DNA of 28,941 nt from Candidatus Dormiibacterota bacterium (GCA_036521135.1 DATDII010000192.1:1-28941), one strand, 5' to 3'. Shown: positions 1,168-11,671, counted from the stretch's first letter. Numbers and translations are program-made. Notes: generated by a model from the letters alone, not told the origin.

Positions 1168-2274
1168 TCAGTCGATCGAGCCGTCGGCGGCCGCCAGCTG
1201 GAGGTAGGCGGCCCGCTCCTCCTCGCTCAGGGGCGAGCGCCCGGCCGAGAGCACCTTGACCCGGAGGAAGAGGTCCCCGGGCGTCGCCGAGGCCTTGAGT
1301 TGGGGGATCCCCTTGCCGACCACCCGCAGCGTCCTTCCCGGGGGGCAGTGGGGCGGGATGGTGACCTCGAGCCGACCGGTCGGGCCCTCGGCGACCACCT
1401 TGCCGCCGAGCGCCGCGCGATAGTCCCGGACCGGCAGGTCGCGATAGACATTGCGGCCCTTGACCTCGGTGCCGCGATCGAGCTTGAGCCTGACCCGGAG
1501 GTAGAGGTCGCCCCGGCCCCCCTCCCGGACCCCGCTTCCGCCCTCGCCCGCGACCCGGATCTTGGACCCCTCGGTCACGCCCGGGGGGATGGTCACCTTG
1601 AGGGTCCGGCGCCGGTATTGGCGGCCGGTGCCGGAGCAGGCGGGGCAGGCCTTGACCCCGACCTGGGTCGCCGTGCCGCCGCTCGACCCGCCCTCCGCCA
1701 CCCGGCCGCTGCCCCGGCAGGTGGGACAGGGCTCGACGATCGAGACGTGCATCGTGCGCTCGCCGCCCTGGACGGCCTCGGCCAGGGTCACCTCGAGCTG
1801 GTCCTCGGTGTCGGCGCCCTTCTTGGAGGCGGAGTTCTCCCGGCGCAGCTGCTCCATCTGGGCCTCGATCCAGGGATCGGCGCCGTCGCCGCCGGTGCCC
1901 CGGGTGCCGAAGAAGGTCTCGAAGAAGTCGCTGAAGCCGCCAAAGCGGGCCCCTGACCGGTCGGCCGCCCGCTGGGCGGTGTCGCGGGCGCGCGCCCCGG
2001 CCTCGGCGAACGGCTGGCCGTGCTCCCGGCGGAAGGCCTCAGCCCGCTCGATCTGCTCCCAGTCGGCGCCGAGGCGGTCGTACTTGGAGCGCTTCTCCTG
2101 GTCCTTGAGCACCTCGTAGGCCTCGTTGACGCGCTTGAAGCGCTCGGTCGCCTTGGGATCCTTGTTGACGTCCGGGTGCAGCTCGCGGGCCAGCTTGCGG
2201 TAGCGGGCCCGGATCTCCTTGTCGGTGGCGGTGCGAGGCACGCCCAGGGTCGCGTAGTAGTCACGGAACTCCAC
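1168..2274 (-). CDS. DnaJ-family chaperone (J domain, one zinc finger, C-terminal substrate-binding domain)
   Basis: MEFRDYYATLGV…LHPDVN (HPD motif), a DFFETFFG motif, two CxxCxGxG repeats (CPTCRGSG, CPACSGTG), and V.IPPGV..G.KIRV.GEG…GDLY. Confidence 0.93.
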   Translation of the reverse strand: MEFRDYYATLGVPRTATDKEIRARYRKLARELHPDVNKDPKATERFKRVNEAYEVLKDQEKRSKYDRLGADWEQIERAEAFRREHGQPFAEAGARARDTAQRAADRSGARFGGFSDFFETFFGTRGTGGDGADPWIEAQMEQLRRENSASKKGADTEDQLEVTLAEAVQGGERTMHVSIVEPCPTCRGSGRVAEGGSSGGTATQVGVKACPACSGTGRQYRRRTLKVTIPPGVTEGSKIRVAGEGGSGVREGGRGDLYLRVRLKLDRGTEVKGRNVYRDLPVRDYRAALGGKVVAEGPTGRLEVTIPPHCPPGRTLRVVGKGIPQLKASATPGDLFLRVKVLSAGRSPLSEEERAAYLQLAAADGSID

Positions 2275-2301: not shown

Positions 2302-3561
2302 TCACGAAACTCGCCCGGGCCGGTCGGCCGTCTCCAGCTGGGCCCGGATCTCGTCGACCAGGCCTTCCATCTCCGGTAGAAGTCCGCCGTCCGGCCCCAG
2401 GACGGGCCCCTCGAAGATGAACCGGGCCAGCTCCCGGCCGGGTCGGGACTGGCCCTGGACCAGGAGCGCCGACTCCCCTGGAAGGGGGCCGCTCAAGGGG
2501 AGCTCCGAGGTCGCGAGGTAGCGTCCGGACGCCGCCCTCTGGCCCCGGCTGCTGGCCACACCCGGCTCAGCCCGGCGCTGCCCTCGTTGGTAGAGGATGA
2601 GCTGCGACCAGTAGGAGTCGAGGCCCTGGTCGCTGCCCGGCGCCAAGCCAAAGCTGGCCAGGTGCTGCTCCAGGATTCCAGGTACCAGCTCGTCCCGGGC
2701 GCTCAGGCTGAAGAGGGGCACCGAGGCCACCAGCCGGGGGTTGATCTCGATGCAGCGGAGGTTCCCGTCGGTCCCCGCCACCAGGTCCAGCCCGAAGATG
2801 CCAAGGTGGCCGGCGCCCCTTAGCCACTCCGCGGCCCGCAGCGCCAGGCGGCGGATCTGGTCCGCCCCCGGAGGTGGCCGGTGGTAGTCGTTGCCGCAGG
2901 ACCCGAGCGGGTGCGGGGTCAGGCTCGGGATCCCGGTCAGCTGGATGCCTGCCTGGCCGACCAGGAGGCGCTCCCTTGAGACCACCCCGGTGACCGTGAC
3001 CGGGGTGCCGGCGATCCGCTCCGCGACCCGGCAGGGCCGGCCTCGGAACTGCTCGACCAGGCGCTCGAGCTGAGCCCGGTCAGGCACCGGGTAGGTGTGC
3101 TCGCCGGAGAAGCCCCGGGCCAGCTGGAAGACCAGGGGAAAGCGCAGCTCACCGGCTGACCGGAGCAGCTCCATGGTCGCCAGCCCGGTCTTGGTCGGGG
3201 GGGTCGGCAGACCCGCCTCCTCGGCGATCCGGCTGAACTGGCTCTTGTTCTCGATCCGGCGGGCGATCCGCGCCGGCGAGTTGGCGAGGAGAACGCCGAG
3301 GTCGCGGGCGACCGCCTCCGCTCCGGCCGAGCTCTTCCAGACCACGGCCGCCCCGAACCCGCCCTGGAGCCGCCGCTGCAGCTTCGGGTCCAGGAGCAGC
3401 GCCGAGGTGGAGCGGGCGCCGGTACCTGGGAAGGCCTCCCAAGCGGGCTGGCCGCCGGGAGCGATCCCGGCGCCGTCGGCGCAGAGGACCGGGAGCCCGC
3501 TCGCGATCGCCGGGAGCGGGTCGGGCCCGAGGAAGACCGCCTTGGACCTCGTTTCGGTCAT
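2302..3561 (-). CDS. ATP-grasp domain ligase, unknown substrate
   Basis: ENKSQF…AGLPTP, FPLVFQLARGFSGEHT, QLTG.P.LTP…GSCGND, GIFGLD, IEINPRL. Start overlaps the upstream stop (GTGA/ATGA-type 4-nt overlap, 3558-3561). Confidence 0.85.
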   Translation of the reverse strand: MTETRSKAVFLGPDPLPAIASGLPVLCADGAGIAPGGQPAWEAFPGTGARSTSALLLDPKLQRRLQGGFGAAVVWKSSAGAEAVARDLGVLLANSPARIARRIENKSQFSRIAEEAGLPTPPTKTGLATMELLRSAGELRFPLVFQLARGFSGEHTYPVPDRAQLERLVEQFRGRPCRVAERIAGTPVTVTGVVSRERLLVGQAGIQLTGIPSLTPHPLGSCGNDYHRPPPGADQIRRLALRAAEWLRGAGHLGIFGLDLVAGTDGNLRCIEINPRLVASVPLFSLSARDELVPGILEQHLASFGLAPGSDQGLDSYWSQLILYQRGQRRAEPGVASSRGQRAASGRYLATSELPLSGPLPGESALLVQGQSRPGRELARFIFEGPVLGPDGGLLPEMEGLVDEIRAQLETADRPGRVS

Positions 3562-4631
3562 GGCCGCTGGAACCCGGCCCCGGTGAGAATGCGGTCCAGC
3601 TCGCTCTCGGAGCTGGCCGAGGGCAGGTCGAGCTCGCGAGCCGGGGTTGGTGCCTGGTCGAGCTGGGCCTCGTCGCCGGTCAAGAGGGCGACCCAGGCTC
3701 CGGCCGGCCCGAGCCGCCGGCTCGCCGCCTCCCGCATCGCCGCCAGGGCGGCCAGGCCTTCCCAGGAGGTGCGCACACCCCGGCGCTCAGCCACCGGGCG
3801 GACGGCGGCGGCGGCGGCGCCCACCCGCCAGCCCCGTCCCCCGCTGGCGCGGACGGCCCGGCGGACGGCCGGGGCCAGCCGGGAGCGGTGGGTCCCGAGC
3901 TCGCCGAGGGTTGCCTCCGAGGTCGGCTCGCTTGTGCTCCGGCCGTACCAGGGCCGGGTCAGCTCACCCCCCGGTTCGCCCTCGACGATGTGCAGCTGGG
4001 GGCGCTCCTGGGCGGGGAGGAGCTGGTCGAACCCCTGGGCCAGACCCAGGGCCGAGGCACCGCTGCTGGAGAAGAGGAAGACGGCAGCCACCGGGCCCGC
4101 GTCCAGCAGCTCGGCGGCCAGACCCCGGTAGGCGTTGGGGGCGAGCCGGTTCACCGAGCCGCGCAGGTCGGCAAGGCCCCAGCTCTGGACAGCGTGGTGG
4201 AGCAGGGCAACCGGGCGGTCGCTGGTGACGGTCAGCTGCTGATAGATCCTCAGCCGATCGAGCTTGAGTCGAGGGGTCCGGGGGGAGACCAGGCTGAGGA
4301 GCCGGATCCCGCCCAGGGAGGCGTAGGCGGCGGCGGCGATGGCCGCGTTGCCACTGGAGGAGATCACGGCCTGGCGCTGGTTTCCGGCCACCAGCTCCGA
4401 GCAGAGCAGGCTCAGGCAGCGCCCCTTGTGGGACCCGCTTGGGGAGAGGTCCTCTCGCTTCAGGAGCAGGCCCGGGATCCCGAGGTCCCGGCCCAGCTCT
4501 GCTCCATCCTCCAGCGCCGTCCCGCCCTCGCCGAGAGAGAGCTGAGATGCAGCCGGTAGACTGACGCCGAAGAGGCGGGCATGGACCCACTGGCCCTGGG
4601 GCTGGCCCCCGCCCGGCTCAGGGGTGGACAT
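3558..4631 (-). CDS. Fold-type II PLP-dependent enzyme, threonine-synthase-like
   Basis: SLGEGGTAL, LKREDLSPSGSHKGR (Schiff-base Lys), SSSGNAA, phosphate loop FSSSGAS, SWEGLAALAA and VALLTG. Confidence 0.85.
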   Translation of the reverse strand: MSTPEPGGGQPQGQWVHARLFGVSLPAASQLSLGEGGTALEDGAELGRDLGIPGLLLKREDLSPSGSHKGRCLSLLCSELVAGNQRQAVISSSGNAAIAAAAYASLGGIRLLSLVSPRTPRLKLDRLRIYQQLTVTSDRPVALLHHAVQSWGLADLRGSVNRLAPNAYRGLAAELLDAGPVAAVFLFSSSGASALGLAQGFDQLLPAQERPQLHIVEGEPGGELTRPWYGRSTSEPTSEATLGELGTHRSRLAPAVRRAVRASGGRGWRVGAAAAAVRPVAERRGVRTSWEGLAALAAMREAASRRLGPAGAWVALLTGDEAQLDQAPTPARELDLPSASSESELDRILTGAGFQRP

Positions 4632-4645
4632 TGAGGAGGTTGTCC

Positions 4646-4819
4646 GTGGGCGGCATCGGCGCGACCGTGAAGCACTGCCCCGATTGCGGTGCCGAACTCG
4701 AGCTCGGCGACGTCGAGGAGGTGGGCGACCTGGTCGACTGCCCCAACTGCGGTGCCACCTTCGAGCTGATCGCCCTCACCCCCCTGACCCTGGCTCTCTT
4801 CGAGGACGAGGAGAAGTAG
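4646..4819 (+). CDS. LysW-like zinc-ribbon carrier protein, 57 aa, atypical C-terminus FEDEEK
   Basis: CPDCGAELELGDVEEVGDLVDCPNCGATFELIALTPLTL aligns with the LysW pattern CPECGAEL…ELGELVVCxxCGAELEVVGLDPLRL. The protein is acidic. Strong SD GAGGAGG (4633-4639) precedes GTG 4646. Confidence 0.85.
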   Translation: MGGIGATVKHCPDCGAELELGDVEEVGDLVDCPNCGATFELIALTPLTLALFEDEEK

Positions 4820-6314
4820 CGGCGCGGACCGCCTGACGGAAGCCGCCCTCGCGGTAGTGGGCGGAGAAGAATCCGGGGCAGGCGGGCGAGAGCAGGACCG
4901 CCTCCCCGGGCCTGGCCTCGGCCACCGCCGCCCGGACCGCCTCCTGCAGGTGCTCCGTCTTTCGAACCAGCTCCCCCTTGCCGGCGCTGCCGAGCTCGCC
5001 GGCGAGCCGGTCCGAGCCCGCGCCAGCGAGGAGGAAGACGAGCCGGACCGGGCCGCCGACCAGCGCCACCAGCTCACCGAAGTCGATGCCCTTGTCCTCG
5101 CCGCCGGCGATGAGGATGCAGGTCCGGCCCACACCCCTGACCGCGGCGACCGTGGATTGGGGGGTCGTGCTGGCGAGGTCGTCGATAAAGTCGACCCCCT
5201 GGTGCTGCCGCACCAGTTCGGTGCGGTGCCGCAGCGGCCGGAAGTCGGCGATCTCACGGGCGGCGGCGGCCAGCCGCTCGGGATCAGCCGGGGTGAGCGC
5301 CGCCAGCACCGTCAGGGCGGCCCGGACGTTGCTCTGGTTGTGGGCGCCGACGAGGCCGATCTGCTCCGCCGCCATAGCGGTCAGGGTCTCCTCATCCCAG
5401 CGGACCCGGATCTGGCCAGCCTCCTCGAAGGCTCCCGGCCGGCCCTCGAGGCCCGCCTCGGACCGGGCGAAGCGCAGCTCCCGGATGCCCTCCGCCAGGG
5501 GGGCGCCCTCGAGGCTGAGCCGGTCCTCCCCGTTCCGCACCGCCACCTCGCAGCCGGGCAGCTCGAAGATGCGGCGTTTGGCCCTGATGTAGCCCGCCAG
5601 CCCCTGATGCTCGTCGAGGTGGTTGGGCGAGATGTTGGTGAGGCAGCCGACCCTTGGGGCCCGGTCGAGCTGGAGCAGCTGGCGGTTGCTGATCTCCAGG
5701 ACCAGGCAGCTTCCCCCCTGGTCGCGGGCGACCTCCTCCAGCGCCTGGCGGTCGTGACGGTCGTTGCCGGCGAGCCAGACCTTCTGGTAGATCCCGGTCG
5801 CCCGCAGGACCGATGCCACCAGGGCGCTGGTCGTCGACTTGCCGTGGCTGCCAGTCACCCCGACCACCTCGCCCTTGGCCAGGTCGAGATAGGCCTGGAC
5901 CAGGGAGTAGAAGGGGTGGCCGCGGTCCTGCAGCTGGAGCAGGGGCGCGTTGGCGGGGGCCAGGAACCAGGCCTGGGTTGGGATGATCAGGGCCGAGTCG
6001 GCGATCCCCTCCAGGTAGCGGTCGGCGAGCCTTAGGGCCTGGAGGCCGGAGAGCAGCTCCTCGAGCCGGAGCTGCCGCTCCCGGCGGTCCAGCCCCGCGT
6101 GGGCCAGGGAGTGGGCCTGCTGGAGGTGCTCCAGGTCCGGTTGCTGGTCGTGACCGACGAGGTTGGTGAAGCCCGCCGCCACCAGGTAGCGGGCCATCTC
6201 GCCTCCCTCGACGCTGGCCACCCCGACCAGGTCGATCCGCCGGTCGCGGAGGTCGGCCAGGGCCGGCGGCACCCGGAGCGTCGCGGTCGCCGCCAGGGGG
6301 CCCGGAGACTCCAT
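4776..6314 (-). CDS. MurD-like ATP-dependent Mur ligase (divergent)
   Basis: GVTGSHGKSTT, VLEISNRQL, LTNISPNHLDEH, GAHNQSN, LRHRTELV, LIAGGEDKG, VLLSPAC. Start set at ATG 6314; the 758-aa ORF's upstream extension overlaps the NlpC/P60 gene and is spurious. Confidence 0.88.
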   Translation of the reverse strand: MESPGPLAATATLRVPPALADLRDRRIDLVGVASVEGGEMARYLVAAGFTNLVGHDQQPDLEHLQQAHSLAHAGLDRRERQLRLEELLSGLQALRLADRYLEGIADSALIIPTQAWFLAPANAPLLQLQDRGHPFYSLVQAYLDLAKGEVVGVTGSHGKSTTSALVASVLRATGIYQKVWLAGNDRHDRQALEEVARDQGGSCLVLEISNRQLLQLDRAPRVGCLTNISPNHLDEHQGLAGYIRAKRRIFELPGCEVAVRNGEDRLSLEGAPLAEGIRELRFARSEAGLEGRPGAFEEAGQIRVRWDEETLTAMAAEQIGLVGAHNQSNVRAALTVLAALTPADPERLAAAAREIADFRPLRHRTELVRQHQGVDFIDDLASTTPQSTVAAVRGVGRTCILIAGGEDKGIDFGELVALVGGPVRLVFLLAGAGSDRLAGELGSAGKGELVRKTEHLQEAVRAAVAEARPGEAVLLSPACPGFFSAHYREGGFRQAVRAATSPRPRREPGSGG

Positions 6315-6330: not shown

Positions 6331-7206
6331 TCAGCGGGCAAGCGCTCCCGGGACTCGGCGCACGGTGAGAACCTGGTAGCGCTCGCGAAACTCGGCCAGC
6401 GGCTCGCGGCGGACCTCATGGCACTCGCTGCAGGCGTGGACCACCTCATCCCCTCCCAGGTAGATGGCGATGTGGCTGGTCCGCCGCGGCCCCCGGTGCA
6501 CGGCGCAGATGAGGTCGGCCTCGCGGAGGCCGGCGATGCGGATCCGTTCCCCGACCTGGCGCTGGGCCCGGCTGTTGCGGGGAAGCAGGACTCCCGCCGC
6601 CAGGTAGGCGCGCCAGACCAGGCCCGAGCAGTCCACTCCCTGACCACCGGTGCCGCCGAACACGTAGGGCCGGCCGAGCAGGGCGAGCGCGGTTGCCCGG
6701 ACCGACTCGATCGGCCAGCCCGATTCGGGCACGGCCAGGACGCCCGGATCCGCCTCGGCAAGGGCCGGGCCCCAGCGGAAGCGGGCGGAGCGCCCCACCC
6801 ATCCGACCGCCTGGCCTGGGGCCCGGACCAGGAACTGGCCCTCCCGGACCGCCAGCAGGGCGGCGGGCGGGTCGCCGGGCAGGAGCTGGGTGGTGAGCTC
6901 GGCAGGCTCGGTGTCGCCATCCGGGCGGTGGCGCCAGACGTCGAGCGGCGGACCGTCGGGGTAGAGGGCGAGGCGAGCCCGGCGCTCTGCCAGGACCAGC
7001 AGCGAGCAGCGGGCACCGGGCCAGATCGCCTCCAGGCGGGTCCGGAACTCAACCGCCTGGGAGGGCAGCGCGACCGTGCCCCGCCAGCCGTCGCCCGCCC
7101 GGCCCACCTCGATCAGGGCCTCGCCGTAGCGGAGCGTGGCCGCCGCCCGGAGCCGTTCGATCTCCGAGGCCACCGCGGAGACGAGATCGGCCGGGGTCGG
7201 GCTCAA
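6331..7206 (-). CDS. NlpC/P60 (C40) peptidase with N-terminal SH3-like domain, YkfC-like
   Basis: LLGRPYVFGG…DCSGLV (Cys), SHIAIY (His), VVHA (His), and an SH3b-like ELTTQLL…VGWV. TTG 7206 overlaps the upstream TGA (TTGA). No signal peptide is evident. Confidence 0.88.
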   Translation of the reverse strand: MSPTPADLVSAVASEIERLRAAATLRYGEALIEVGRAGDGWRGTVALPSQAVEFRTRLEAIWPGARCSLLVLAERRARLALYPDGPPLDVWRHRPDGDTEPAELTTQLLPGDPPAALLAVREGQFLVRAPGQAVGWVGRSARFRWGPALAEADPGVLAVPESGWPIESVRATALALLGRPYVFGGTGGQGVDCSGLVWRAYLAAGVLLPRNSRAQRQVGERIRIAGLREADLICAVHRGPRRTSHIAIYLGGDEVVHACSECHEVRREPLAEFRERYQVLTVRRVPGALAR

Positions 7207-8078
7207 CTGTCCCCGGCTCCGAAGAGGCGGCGCCAGCCCGACTGGGCGGTCGGCCGGCCCTCGGCCGGGTGGAGCTCCAAGCCCAGCCCGTCGGTCGTGA
7301 GCAGGACGGGGCTGAGCGGGAAGCTGGCCAGGCGGTAGAGCCGGCGCGCCAGCTCCAGCATCGGCTTGGGTTCCGCGGCCTCGCCCACGGCCGCCACCAC
7401 CATGGCCCGGTCGGGGGCGGCGATGGCCGCCCGGCCGCCGCCGAGCTGGCCCAGGCGCGCCAGGAACGCGGGCACCAGGAGCAGGCTGCTCGAGAAGAGG
7501 GCGTCGTCGGTGAAGAGCCAGGTCCGGTCCTTGGGATTCTGGTCCAGGACCGAGCCCCAGCGGGTCAGCCGAAGGCAGGTGTTGTAGTCGGCGTGCTGGG
7601 CCAGCTCGGAGGCGCTGAGACCGCCCGCCTCGGCCTCCGCCCGCGAGACTCCCCGCATCGCCTCGCCCGGGAGCGTCTCGGCGACGAAGGCGAGCAGACC
7701 GCCGGGAAGCTCCCTGGTGGCCAGCTCGGCGTAGCGGCGGTAGCGGCGGATGCTGCGCTCGGTCCTGACGCACCAGACCAGGCCGCCCGGGTCGGGCGCA
7801 GCCTGGGCCCGTTCGGGATGGGCCTCGGCCCCGCTCAGGCGGGGCCCGACCCCGGTCACAAAACGCGAGATTTGCTCGGGAACTGACACCTCGGGACGGT
7901 TGACCTCAGCGAACAGAGAGTCGAGCGAGAGCGACACCTGACAGCGCTCCTTGGCGGCGATGACGCCGAACCCCTCGGCCGCCGCCTGGAAACCCCAGTC
8001 CGAGTACCGTGCCCGGAGCTGGGTCAGGAGCCGCTCCTGAAACTCGCGCCGGGCCGATCCTAGTCGCGGGCCGGCCAC
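7203..8078 (-). CDS. Hypothetical protein, DUF1444 (YtpQ)-like
   Basis: C-terminal DDALFSSSLLL…FL…AIAAPDR…FPLSP resembles the DUF1444 pattern. The stop is coupled to the NlpC/P60 start. Family call by eye. Confidence 0.55.
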   Translation of the reverse strand: MAGPRLGSARREFQERLLTQLRARYSDWGFQAAAEGFGVIAAKERCQVSLSLDSLFAEVNRPEVSVPEQISRFVTGVGPRLSGAEAHPERAQAAPDPGGLVWCVRTERSIRRYRRYAELATRELPGGLLAFVAETLPGEAMRGVSRAEAEAGGLSASELAQHADYNTCLRLTRWGSVLDQNPKDRTWLFTDDALFSSSLLLVPAFLARLGQLGGGRAAIAAPDRAMVVAAVGEAAEPKPMLELARRLYRLASFPLSPVLLTTDGLGLELHPAEGRPTAQSGWRRLFGAGDS

Positions 8079-8277
8079 GGTTCAGCCGGCCCCAGCCCGG
8101 TCGCCGATTGCCTCGGCGCCGGGGAGCGGGCGGACTGCGGGGGTGTCGCCTGGGGAGCGCGAGAAATCCATGGAGATACCGGGCAACTGTCTCACTGATT
8201 GGCTGGCGGCGGTGGCTTTTTGATCAACGGGCAACCGTATCGCCTCCGAGCCGTCCTCCCCCGGCACCGGTCCTCGG

Positions 8278-10266
8278 CTAGGTCCGGCTCTGGCGGCTGG
8301 CCACGTAGTCCACCAGGACGTAGTCACCGAGGCGGTCGGGACTGACGAAGAAGGCCCGGCCGCGGTTCTGTCGGGTCATCTGCTTGATGAACTGAACCAG
8401 GTACTGGTTGCTCTCCAACATGAAGGTGTTGATCACGATTCCGTCGCGGGTGCAGTGACGCACCTCCTGGAGCGTCTTTTGGAAGGTCTCCGGCAGGGGC
8501 GGGTACATAAAGACCGCGTGCGCGCCCTCCATGTGCGCGGTTGGCTCGCCATCGCTGACGATGATGACCTGGCGGTTGCCGACGCGGTGGCGATGGAGCA
8601 GGCGCCGCGCCAGCATCAGGCCGTGCTGCATGTTGGTGCCGTAGACGTACTCGCTGTAGGAGAGTTGCGCCAGCAGCGCCGGGCTGATCTCGCGCGCGTA
8701 ATCGGAGAATCCGACCACGTAGAGGGTGTCTCGGGGAAACTGGGTCCGGATCAGAGAATCCAGCGCCAGAGCCATTTTCTTGGCGGCGTAGAAGTAGCCC
8801 CGCAACGGCATGCTCCGGCTCATGTCGAGCATGAGAACGGTGCTGGTCTGCACGCTCCGCTCGGGTTCGCGGACCTCGAAGTCGGAGACGGCGAGACGGA
8901 GCGGGCGGCTGCCGTCGCTGTGACGGACGGCGTTCATCAGGGTGCGCTCGACGTCGAGGTTGAAGGCGTCGCCGAACTGGTAGGGCTTGCTGTAGTCGCC
9001 CAGCTCTGAGCCACTGCCGGCAGTCCCCTGGCGATGGCTGCCGAAGCCGTCGGCGGAGAGGTGCTGAAAGATGTCCGCCAGGGCCTTCTGGCCGATCTTG
9101 CGAACCCCCTGGGGGGTGAGCTCGAGCCCGGCCGGGTCGCGCCGGAGCTGGCCCTTGGCCTCCAGCTCCTTGACCAGCTCCTGGATCTGGGCGAGGCTGG
9201 CAGCCGACTCCGGACCCAGGCTCTCCGCCATCTGCTCCAGGAGCTCGCCCGGCAGCTCGACCCCGGCGTAGGCCTGGCGGACGCCCCGCTCGAGGGAGTC
9301 CAGCTGCTGCAGCTCCCCCATCACGTCGAGCGCCCCGGGGAGGTCGAGCTCCTCCCCGCCGAAGAAGGGAAACCGGGTGCCGGCGGTGGGCTGGGGCGAG
9401 ACCTGGCCAAGGAGCCGGGAGAGCTCAGCCAGCTGGGCCTGGAGCTCCTCGTCGTTGAGGCTGGCGCGCATGATCTCCTGGAGTTGCTGGCGCGTCTCCC
9501 GCGACGCCGACTCCAGCAGCGAGTTCAGCTCGGCCATCTGCTGGCGGAGCTGCTCGATGAAGCCCTCGAGGTCGTCCGGGTGGTCGGGGAAGTAGCTGCC
9601 CCAGCGCTCCATGAACTCCTGGTAGCCGGGGGGCTCACCCCGCTGCTGGCGCTGGAGCATCTGGTTGAGGTCGGAGACCATCTCCCTGAGCCGGCCCAGG
9701 TCCCGCTGATCGAGGGACTGGACCGCCTGGCCGAGGTCCTGGAAGTGGCGCTCGACCAGGCTCTGGCGCAGCTCGGCGAGGAGGTCCTGGAACTCCTGGC
9801 GCGCCTGCTGGTCGAGGAACTCGTAGTCCTGGAGGGCCCGGATCGCCGACCCCGCCTCGGGAGGGAGGCTGTCCAGCTGCTCGAGCCGAGCCCGGGTGAG
9901 CCGCTCGATCAGGCGCTCGCGGTCGGTGCCCGCAGCCGAGCTGGCTCGCTCGCCAAGCGTCTGGCGCTCCTTCTGGAGGATTCGGTCGAGGCGCTCCTCC
10001 AGGTCGCGGAAGAGGCCGTCGAGGTTGTAGCGCTCGAGCTTCTCCTGGCGCTGCTGGCGGAGCTGCTCGAGGACTTCCTCGAGGCCCCGGAGCTGGCGCC
10101 CCTGGCTGTCCTTGAACCCCTGGCTGAGCAGGCGCCGGAGCGCGGACTCGAAGTCCCAGCCGTGGAAGACGTCCTCGGCCAGGCGGGCGAAGAGCTCGCT
10201 GGGGTCGGGGAGATCCCCGGCCTGGCTGCCGTCCCAGCGGCTGTAGCGGAGCCGGACAGCGGCCAC
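8278..10266 (-). CDS. von Willebrand factor A domain protein (Rv0959-like)
   Basis: N-terminal RYSRWDGSQ, a long coiled-coil region, and MIDAS DMSRS, GTNMQHGL, IVSDGEPTAH. Confidence 0.88.
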   Translation of the reverse strand: MAAVRLRYSRWDGSQAGDLPDPSELFARLAEDVFHGWDFESALRRLLSQGFKDSQGRQLRGLEEVLEQLRQQRQEKLERYNLDGLFRDLEERLDRILQKERQTLGERASSAAGTDRERLIERLTRARLEQLDSLPPEAGSAIRALQDYEFLDQQARQEFQDLLAELRQSLVERHFQDLGQAVQSLDQRDLGRLREMVSDLNQMLQRQQRGEPPGYQEFMERWGSYFPDHPDDLEGFIEQLRQQMAELNSLLESASRETRQQLQEIMRASLNDEELQAQLAELSRLLGQVSPQPTAGTRFPFFGGEELDLPGALDVMGELQQLDSLERGVRQAYAGVELPGELLEQMAESLGPESAASLAQIQELVKELEAKGQLRRDPAGLELTPQGVRKIGQKALADIFQHLSADGFGSHRQGTAGSGSELGDYSKPYQFGDAFNLDVERTLMNAVRHSDGSRPLRLAVSDFEVREPERSVQTSTVLMLDMSRSMPLRGYFYAAKKMALALDSLIRTQFPRDTLYVVGFSDYAREISPALLAQLSYSEYVYGTNMQHGLMLARRLLHRHRVGNRQVIIVSDGEPTAHMEGAHAVFMYPPLPETFQKTLQEVRHCTRDGIVINTFMLESNQYLVQFIKQMTRQNRGRAFFVSPDRLGDYVLVDYVASRQSRT

Positions 10267-10276
10267 CGCGGCTTGC

Positions 10277-11671
10277 CTAGCTGCCGTAGACGGCGGTGCC
10301 GTCGACCTGGGCCTTGTTCAGCCGCTTGGCCAGGTGGAGCCCCTCCAGGACCAGCTCGAGGGCGGCGGCCACCGAGCCCGGCTGCTGGGGCTCGTCGAGG
10401 TCGCTGAGGATCCGCTTCATCTCGGGGATGCCGTCGGCGAGCTGGAGGTAGCGGGCCGCCTCGACCATCTCGCCCACCTCGATGGTCAGGCCCTGCTCAA
10501 AGCGCGCCAGCATCGGGGCGAACTCCTGGAGGGCGAAGTGGCGCCGGAAGACGTTGCCGGTGGCGCTGCGGAGCAGCTTCTCGAGGACCGCCTGGTCCTC
10601 GCCCTCCTCCCAGGTCTCGAGCTCGAGCTTCCCGAGCGTCGAGGCGGAGAGGGCGCTCAGGTCGCTGAGCCGGGGCACCGCCTCGGGCTCCCCCAGGCTG
10701 ATCGTCCGGCGGACGGCGTTGGCGCAGAGGCTCTCGAAGTTGGCGATCGAGAGCCGGACCGAGACCCCCGAGCGCTGGTTGATCTGGGTGGTCCGCCGGG
10801 CCAGCTGGGAGATCTCGGCCACCAGCTCGAGCATGTACTGGGGAACGTGGACCGGGATGCCCAGGCCGGCGAACTGGTCCCGCTCCTGCTCGATGATCTC
10901 GGCCTCGGCCTCAGGCGACCGCGGGTAGTGGGTTCGGATCTGGGCGCCGAAGCGGTCCTTGAGCGGGGTGATGATCCGCCCCCGGTTGGTGTAGTCCTCG
11001 GGGTTGGCGGTGGCCACGACCAGGACGTCGAGGGGGAGGCGCACCTGGAAGCCACGGATCTGGACGTCCCGCTCCTCCATGATGTTGAGCAGGCCCACCT
11101 GGATCCGCTCGGCCAGATCGGGGAGCTCGTTGATCGCGAAGATGCCCCGGTTGACCCGGGGAAGCAGGCCGTAGTGGATGGTGAGCTCGTCGGCCAGGTA
11201 GCGGCCCTCGGCGACCCGGATCGGGTCGACCTCGCCGATCAGGTCGGCGATGGACGTGTCGGGGGTCGCCAGCTTCTCCCCGAAGCGGTCCTGGCGCCCG
11301 ATCCACCCGACCGGCGTCTCGTCGCCCAGCTCGGCGACCAGGTCGCGGCCGAACCGGCTGATCGGGGCGTAGGGGTGGTCATGGACCTCGCTGCCTCGGA
11401 TGACCGGGATCTGCTCGTCGAGGAGCTCGGCTAGGGCGCGGATCAGCCGCGACTTGGCCTGACCCCGCTCGCCCAGGAAAACGATGTCCTGGCCCGCCAG
11501 GATCGCGTTCTCGATCTGGGGCAGCACCGTGTCCTGGTAGCCGACCAGGCCCGAGAAGCGCTCCCGACCCTGGCGCAGTGCCTCGACCAGGTTGTCCCGC
11601 AGCTCCTCCCGGACCGAGCGCATCCGGTACTCGCTGCCCCGCAATTCACCGAGGGTGCTGGGAAGTGCCAA
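10277..11671 (-). CDS. ChlI/Mg-chelatase-like AAA+ ATPase (Rv0958-like)
   Basis: Walker A-like GERGQAKS, NRGIFAINELPDL, ATANPEDYTNRGRIITPLKDRFG. Directly upstream of the vWA gene. Confidence 0.9.
   Translation of the reverse strand: MALPSTLGELRGSEYRMRSVREELRDNLVEALRQGRERFSGLVGYQDTVLPQIENAILAGQDIVFLGERGQAKSRLIRALAELLDEQIPVIRGSEVHDHPYAPISRFGRDLVAELGDETPVGWIGRQDRFGEKLATPDTSIADLIGEVDPIRVAEGRYLADELTIHYGLLPRVNRGIFAINELPDLAERIQVGLLNIMEERDVQIRGFQVRLPLDVLVVATANPEDYTNRGRIITPLKDRFGAQIRTHYPRSPEAEAEIIEQERDQFAGLGIPVHVPQYMLELVAEISQLARRTTQINQRSGVSVRLSIANFESLCANAVRRTISLGEPEAVPRLSDLSALSASTLGKLELETWEEGEDQAVLEKLLRSATGNVFRRHFALQEFAPMLARFEQGLTIEVGEMVEAARYLQLADGIPEMKRILSDLDEPQQPGSVAAALELVLEGLHLAKRLNKAQVDGTAVYGS

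Follow-up and report, generated by a model that had tools for sequence, protein, structure and literature searches.

[quoted passage not shown] In the window analysed here, a stretch of 28,941 nucleotides from a Candidatus Dormiibacterota bacterium (GCA_036521135.1 DATDII010000192.1:1-28941), a short gene encodes a LysW-like protein that ends in Lys, which raises the question of what such a protein could carry, by which of its groups, and for which pathway. The genome of the window (G000) is a MAG of 1.83 Mb that is 86% complete. The genes and sites of the locus are:

1168-2274, minus strand: DnaJ
2302-3561, minus strand: ATP-grasp ligase, 419 aa (PF02655), with a 4-nt overlap with the PLP gene
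3558-4631, minus strand: PLP enzyme of fold-type II, threonine-synthase-like, 357 aa (PF00291, 124.7 bits)
4633-4639, plus strand: Shine-Dalgarno-like GAGGAGG, 6 nt 5' of the carrier GTG, by direct reading of the sequence
4646-4819, plus strand: carrier gene, LysW-fold zinc ribbon of 57 aa with an -EEK tail (PF21344); GTG start at 4646, TAG stop at 4817-4819
4676-4750, plus strand: zinc site of the carrier, C11xxC14 (4676-4687) and C32xxC35 (4739-4750), columns invariant in two alignments
4799-4816, plus strand: carrier tail F52-E53-D54-E55-E56-K57, with E56 and K57 invariant in 134/134 lysine-ended members
4776-6314, minus strand: atypical MurD-like Mur ligase, 512 aa (TIGR01087, 199.6 bits), start at 6314
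6331-7206, minus strand: NlpC/P60 cysteine peptidase of the YkfC / dipeptidyl-peptidase-VI type, 291 aa (PF00877, 70 bits)
7203-8078, minus strand: uncharacterised protein, 291 aa
8278-10266, minus strand: VWA protein with Rv0959/Mb0984-like domains
10277-11671, minus strand: MoxR-like AAA ATPase

The carrier gene and its lysine tail

The carrier ORF is a genuine small protein with the LysW zinc-ribbon fold. It matches the Pfam model Zn_ribbon_LysW (PF21344) at 46.1 bits (cut-off 27, E 3.8e-12), and reading of the ORF confirmed what had been noticed in a sequence-only reading of the same DNA, namely two intact CxxC pairs (C11/C14 and C32/C35) and a C-terminus L-A-L-F-E-D-E-E-K closed by a clean TAG. 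The protein scores under the cut-offs of the NCBI lysW equivalog TIGR01206 (45.2 vs 53.2 bits) and of NF041070 (37 vs 75 bits), and no EDWGE was found in the carrier or in the sequence downstream of it in any frame. It is encoded by the lone plus-strand gene within a run of minus-strand genes: its start and that of the PLP gene are divergent and 14 nt apart, and it shares its last 44 nt with the 3' end of the MurD-like gene on the opposite strand, with the 'TSPRPRR' tail of MurD encoded opposite the FEDEEK of the carrier.

The subfamily was gathered by an exhaustive search of 50%-identity cluster representatives together with a profile search, the latter alone returning 890 proteins at E <= 1e-5. 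Among the 201 short LysW-like proteins collected, 134 are lysine-ended; all of these end in -EK (Glu56 in 134/134) and 132 of them in -EEK (Glu55 in 132/134), and a terminal Arg or other residue was never seen in these carriers. This invariance spans carrier sequences that are just 30-45% identical, and all 36 close homologues (58-79% identity) end in F-x-D-E-E-K. The remaining short LysW-like sequences, going by their printed ends, mostly have the classical EDWGE or another acidic tail. In independent soil-study contigs (runs X2 and X3) the carrier gene has no indel and the identical stop, L51P being the sole difference near the tail; no RNA run with the locus was found. About half of the codon differences among Dormibacteria carrier orthologues are synonymous, which fits a translated gene. 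These comparisons support the view that the terminal Lys is an invariant, selected feature. Conservation of a terminal (E/D)EK, which the sequence-only reading had proposed to check in homologues, holds in 134/134 sequences for -EK, and two of the three outcomes that it had named as fatal to itself did not occur: variable C-termini are excluded by the 36/36 and 134/134 counts, and a truncation or sequencing error by the independent soil contigs. A truncated or mis-assembled canonical lysW, for which nothing speaks beyond the public 'LysW' annotation of homologues, can be rejected with near certainty, since 134 sequences have the same end, independent metagenomes show it too without any indel, and no LysX/RimK-type gene adjoins the carrier or rises above noise in the genome.

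Residue 51 itself is Leu in the window and Pro (…LAPF…) in nearly all orthologues. Position 4797 is C (Leu to Pro) in two other soil samples, a strain-level variant just ahead of the tail.

Conservation of the tail as a by-product of the antisense MurD overlap was considered and rejected, since -EEK is still present in other phyla, where the carrier has no MurD overlap and the tail of MurD is different. The last 15 nt of the carrier are identical in Dormibacteria, so that they are uninformative on this question. It looks instead as if the 'TSPRPRR' end of the Dormibacteria MurD is the by-product of the overlap.

A five-gene module across phyla

The carrier is part of a conserved module of five genes, which encode the carrier, the ATP-grasp ligase, the threonine-synthase-like PLP enzyme, the atypical MurD and the YkfC-like NlpC/P60 peptidase. 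A species-level scan with one genome per prokaryote species yielded 80 LysW-like loci, 13 with the -EEK tail and 67 with EDWGE or EEEWD. The hosts of the 13 -EEK loci are CSSED10-310, a 'Deltaproteobacteria' MAG, Planctomycetota, Chloroflexota, a CPR Shapirobacteria MAG and unclassified MAGs, and lysine-tailed module loci are found in at least six lineages. In tblastn searches with the window proteins, homologues of module enzymes adjoin the carrier in 13/13 -EEK loci, and all four enzymes lie beside it wherever the contig is long enough, except at the CPR locus, where PLP enzyme and ATP-grasp lie beside housekeeping mur genes and NlpC/P60 and the module MurD are missing. At the canonical EDWGE/EEEWD loci the module set was found in 0/67 cases. 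Conservation of the neighbourhood, also proposed as a check in the earlier reading, is thus borne out across phyla. The commonest order is carrier, NlpC/P60, MurD-like ligase, PLP enzyme and ATP-grasp on one strand, and several orders and strand arrangements occur. At two CPR loci the carrier, PLP enzyme and ATP-grasp genes abut mraY, murA, other mur ligases and ftsI. A search for natural fusions of a lysine-tailed carrier to a module enzyme found none, only one tandem double carrier (P0039, 103 aa), a double zinc ribbon in which the -IEEEK end is present on the second copy only.

The other Dormibacteria contigs examined show the layout of the window again, convergent overlap included; the antisense geometry is kept in Dormibacteria and not in other phyla, where the module genes are on one strand. 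The genes for the AAA ATPase, the VWA protein and the uncharacterised 291-aa protein (7203-11671, minus strand) always follow the module in Dormibacteria. Together with DnaJ they accompany it in Dormibacteria only, and we do not count these four genes as part of the module because no other phylum has them at its module loci. Carrier-like matches in two sister-family genomes (G016 and G018) were rejected as canonical EDWGE LysW without the module.

The model of the ATP-grasp ligase (pLDDT 92.6) has a biotin carboxylase/PurK/PurD/carbamoyl-phosphate synthetase-like architecture. Its profile matches are carbamoyl-phosphate synthetase (CPS), the gamma-glutamyl ligase BesA, biotin carboxylase and Ddl; LysX, ArgX and RimK are absent among its profile and fold matches. 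An E-x-N-P-R motif is CPS-like, and GSWGR, the motif that reads EDWGE in LysX/ArgX, was found in 0/30 orthologues. The enzyme scores 15.8 bits against TIGR02144 (cut-off 275.6), and the only PF08443 match in the genome (22 bits) lies elsewhere from the module. Judged by these motifs and scores, the ATP-grasp is not of the LysX/RimK type. The PLP enzyme has as invariants the PLP-lysine K69, S93-G94-N95 and R157, and its top Foldseek matches are threonine synthases (TM 0.75); with 21 bits against TIGR00260 (thrC, cut-off 167), it is probably not a threonine synthase orthologue. Structure searches of these two enzymes returned generic family matches only, which do not settle the substrate. The NlpC/P60 peptidase (best PDB matches 3npf, 3pvq and 3h41) is closest to the YkfC / dipeptidyl-peptidase VI enzymes, has the D-C-S catalytic motif in 16/16 orthologues and a hint of an N-terminal SH3b-like region, and is free of a hydrophobic N-terminal stretch; it also matches the MepS DD-endopeptidase/LD-carboxypeptidase model. 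YkfC and dipeptidyl-peptidase VI enzymes cut gamma-D-Glu-L-diamino-acid bonds.

A predicted complex of the carrier with the ATP-grasp reached an ipSAE of 0.48 vs 0.00 for the best control, to be read against a pass mark that was reached by 58/80 solved complexes and 2/110 mismatches, with values of 0.60 or below in 7/80 solved complexes and in both mismatches. In the model, tail residues 52-57 of the carrier contact the active-site loops 148-152, 174-176 and 278-279 of the ATP-grasp. The model lends weak support to the pairing of the two proteins, and it may echo LysW-LysX structures.

Like LysW/ArgW of Thermus, Sulfolobus, Thermococcus and Natrinema and AmCP of Streptomyces, the carrier has the PF21344 globular domain, an acidic surface and a flexible C-terminal tail, and the module follows the same logic, in which a small carrier is loaded by an ATP-grasp enzyme, modifying enzymes act and a hydrolase brings about release. 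Unlike LysW, the carrier ends in -EEK and not EDWGE, its ATP-grasp is not LysX/ArgX and is without GSWGR, and the partners are a ThrC-like PLP enzyme, MurD and NlpC/P60 in the context of peptidoglycan and not of Lys/Arg synthesis. No homologues of LysZ, LysY, LysJ or LysK were found among the window neighbours scanned or in any lysine-tailed locus. Because the EDWGE end, a score at equivalog level, a LysX-type partner and the LysZ/Y/J/K partners are all missing, we conclude from the comparison of motifs and gene content that the module resembles LysW in its logic, yet is not a LysW system. In the literature library searched, no paper has LysW and MurD together and none describes the module; papers found for LysW or carrier proteins in connection with peptidoglycan dealt mainly with endolysins.

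Glutamate racemase and MurD in module genomes

Glutamate racemase MurI (TIGR00067) was found in 0/26 module genomes overall (0/13 in the window's genus, 0/3 in a second Dormibacteria family and 0/10 in other phyla) and in 5/8 genomes of the sister family without the module, 83/117 genomes of a phylum sample without the module and 7/10 canonical-LysW genomes; these counts are clustered by descent, come from a limited number of lineages and are not independent, with several phyla covered. The loss of MurI appears specific, since module genomes retain alanine racemase (Alr, above cut-off in 15/16) and Ddl (found in 14/16). In the window's genome, the Ddl gene (G000:C191:10219-11277) lies directly after the MurF-like gene and is below cut-off, with two separate parts of the model (2-229 and 232-317) matched inside a single frame of 412 aa; this Ddl is divergent or carries an insertion. 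No D-amino-acid transaminase scored above cut-off in the same genome, which has only class-IV aminotransferase-like genes (<=102 bits); judging from these matches, they may be another source of D-Glu.

The window's genome also encodes MurC-like, MurE-like and MurF-like genes, which makes the module ligase its fourth Mur ligase. Neither this genome nor any of 12 other genomes of the genus gave a MurD-type match besides the module copy. Against TIGR01087 the 199.6 bits of the window's protein fall under the cut-off of 211.95 and only model positions 73-422 are matched, and such a partial match is common to all module MurD copies. Those of the window's genus score 189-208 bits, with the match starting at model position 24-74 (mostly ~73), and sister-family MurDs are full-length with 257-378 bits. 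In other phyla the module copy is the best MurD match in 9/10 module genomes (213-262 bits, from position 51-79), and no second full-length MurD was found in those nine; the tenth, a CPR genome (G028), has only a weak MurD-type match of 94 bits. The Mur-ligase core is kept in the window's protein (PF08245 77.5 bits, PF02875 53.1 bits, GSHGKST retained). In the N-domain of the module MurD the glycine motif is changed and ~30 residues are inserted; GGNIG is replaced by [AS]GNDR[HY] and LSSFQ by [IV]SNRQ, and there are changes in the SPAC..DQF segment. The module MurDs of all phyla fall, in a tree, on one side of a branch with support of 100/99, apart from the sister-family MurDs.

A further substitution concerns the Lys of the D-S-K-A-T motif, the counterpart of Lys348 in an alignment with E. 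coli MurD. This Lys is replaced in 16/16 module MurDs by Ser, Ala, Asn or Gly (DDLAST in the window) and is present in three sister-family MurDs whose genomes have MurI. In E. coli MurD, Lys348 is near D-Glu and helps to set the chirality of the accepted Glu (PMC8788868). By this alignment, the module MurD is without the Lys that holds the alpha-carboxylate of free D-Glu. The nearest functional analogue is the MurD2/MurL route of Xanthomonas and Micromonospora, in which glutamate racemase is absent, an atypical MurD2 has Arg at the Lys348 position and extra ATP-dependent chemistry is used (PMC8788868). The module bacteria are likewise without MurI and have a MurD altered at this position. The module MurD differs from MurD2 in having Ser, Ala, Asn or Gly there and a remodelled N-domain, and MurL/MurD2 has no carrier, PLP enzyme or peptidase.

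We consider this link between the absence of MurI, an abnormal MurD and the D-Glu step, which the sequence-only reading had missed, to be the main point of the analysis. In the genomes searched, the module is found only in bacteria that are without both glutamate racemase and a normal MurD, and it probably marks an undescribed D-Glu route. That it serves residue 2 of the stem peptide seems likely to us. The more specific proposal, that it stands in for glutamate racemase and canonical MurD by supplying and installing the D-Glu of the UDP-MurNAc peptide, belongs to the scheme set out below, to which as a whole we give not quite an even chance; the complementary occurrence of the module with MurI and canonical MurD is itself an observation.

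MurI and the module are both missing from three sister-family genomes (G015, G017 and G018; loci L108-L110), which encode a full-length MurD that is also without the motif lysine (DDSIAT, DDALAS); this pattern may represent yet another unrecognised D-Glu solution.

Proposed carrier chemistry and its alternatives

A PLP enzyme requires a free alpha-amine on its substrate, so that attachment of the cargo through its amine, in the manner of LysW, is improbable. A carboxyl-group carrier is favoured, because N-epsilon of Lys57 is the only amine of the tail and this Lys is never replaced by Arg. In the scheme that we propose, the ATP-grasp would activate the gamma-carboxyl of L-Glu and join it to N-epsilon of Lys57, leaving the alpha-amino-acid end of Glu free. 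The PLP enzyme would then bind this free end and invert C-alpha, and the atypical MurD would couple UDP-MurNAc-L-Ala to D-Glu, either tethered or already released; its pocket, without the Lys for a free alpha-carboxylate, may accept the tethered residue. In the last step NlpC/P60 would cut the gamma-D-Glu-Lys bond and regenerate the carrier. The scheme as a whole is put forward tentatively, at slightly less than even confidence, and what it says of substrate, attachment atom and sequence of steps is inferred; glutamate as the cargo is deduced from the MurI/MurD pattern only.

There is a precedent for part of it. In the CysO-CysM-Mec system of Mycobacterium, the C-terminus of a small carrier is the site of action of a fold-type-II PLP enzyme, and the amino acid is afterwards set free by a peptidase, which makes this system the nearest precedent for a fold-II PLP enzyme on a carrier C-terminus; CysO itself is a ubiquitin-like beta-grasp protein with an adenylation-activated Gly-Gly thiocarboxylate, and the protease is of the JAMM type. 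Several points stand against the scheme: the PLP enzyme resembles threonine synthase and not a known racemase, the ATP-grasp is as similar to bicarbonate-activating enzymes as it is to amino-acid ligases, and the need for a carrier in racemisation is not obvious. The peptidase cuts both ways. The sequence-only reading had suggested that a gamma-Glu-Lys linkage would resemble the bond class cut by the neighbouring NlpC/P60 enzyme, and this is in keeping with the bonds cut by YkfC/dipeptidyl-peptidase VI, with which the peptidase shares the Cys motif, an SH3b-like hint and a cytoplasmic location. However, the gamma-D-Glu bonds on which YkfC-type enzymes normally act involve the alpha-amine of the diamino acid and not its epsilon-amine, and by analogy this preference would count against the proposed epsilon-amine link. 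YkfC, moreover, recycles free L-Ala-gamma-D-Glu-Lys/DAP peptides, unlike the module enzyme, for which the Lys would be a protein C-terminus and epsilon-linked.

The alternative that survives best keeps the carrier close to LysW: the amine of the substrate would sit on the gamma-carboxyl of Glu56, and Lys57 would serve for recognition or positioning, or else as a cap taken off by a peptidase so that Glu is exposed, comparable to the action of Dop on Pup. Glu56 is as invariant as Lys57 (134/134) and Glu55 nearly so (132/134), the fold and the acidic surface are LysW-like, and in the predicted complex the tail enters the active site of the ATP-grasp as in LysW-LysX. The statement of the sequence-only reading that canonical chemistry is not possible at this end was therefore too strong, for the invariant penultimate Glu56 still offers a gamma-carboxyl. 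On the other hand, an N-acylated amino acid would be unable to form the external aldimine that the conserved PLP enzyme requires, the ATP-grasp with its missing GSWGR is not of the LysX/RimK type, and Arg, which would be tolerated for mere charge recognition, never substitutes for Lys. We regard amine loading on Glu56 as unlikely.

Quite improbable, in our judgement, is extension of the carrier at its C-terminus, with the MurD-like ligase or the ATP-grasp adding Glu to the alpha-carboxylate of Lys57. The tail would then mimic a stem peptide ending in an L-diamino acid, Glu would be epimerised via an activated carboxylate, as proposed for MurL, and NlpC/P60 would release D-Glu as an LD-carboxypeptidase. 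Remodelling of the N-domain and UMA-side motifs of MurD is expected if the acyl substrate is not UDP-MurNAc-L-Ala, the peptidase also fits the MepS model, and MurL provides a precedent for ATP-dependent epimerisation of peptide-bound Glu. But such a role would leave the module genomes without an enzyme for the true MurD step and the PLP enzyme without a function, and the best matches of the peptidase are gamma-D-Glu endopeptidases.

To about the same low degree we credit a carrier that is never covalently modified, either a zinc-ribbon adaptor or regulator of the neighbour enzymes, or a member of a set that makes or recycles a non-peptidoglycan product, for instance a metabolite of small-peptide type. 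A structural role is common among zinc ribbons, and chemistry does not follow from gene linkage; yet an invariant, flexible, free tail of three residues is typical of a reactive end, and it would be hard to explain otherwise why this MurD is the only one, why MurI is missing and why the genes have a dcw position in CPR.

The ATP-grasp also brings to mind a BCCP-like carboxyl carrier, in which bicarbonate would be activated and transferred to N-epsilon of Lys57 as carbamate, and CO2 would be passed to the threonine-synthase-like enzyme or MurD. By sequence and by fold, the ATP-grasp indeed matches carbamoyl-phosphate synthetase, biotin carboxylase and PurK best, and E-x-N-P-R is CPS-like. These matches, however, mostly reflect a shared three-domain ATP-grasp architecture, as PurD, Ddl and amino-acid ligases score too; the bicarbonate motif of biotin carboxylase was not seen in the module enzyme, and the peptidase would have no role. 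We therefore hold a carbamate on Lys57 to be very improbable.

Returning to the scheme with gamma-linked Glu on Lys57, it is possible, albeit rather doubtful at present, that the protein is the first carboxyl-group carrier protein, that the atypical MurD takes Glu directly off it, and that the module constitutes a third D-Glu route. Such a route would follow MurI/Dat and MurD2/MurL, and its users would be Dormibacteria, other Chloroflexota, Planctomycetota, CSSED10-310 and many CPR. The supply of D-Glu in bacteria without glutamate racemase is known for few groups, by D-amino-acid transaminase or MurD2/MurL. If true, the proposal would account for D-Glu in large groups of uncultured bacteria, among them the Dormibacteria of soil and many of the ultra-small members of the CPR, which have been described as having an incomplete wall pathway. 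The LysW principle would also be inverted, with the carrier presenting an amine and not a carboxyl, and the scope for protein-tethered metabolism would widen. Public records name the homologues 'lysine biosynthesis protein LysW'; for the lysine-tailed ones this annotation is probably wrong, and hundreds of such entries would be corrected.
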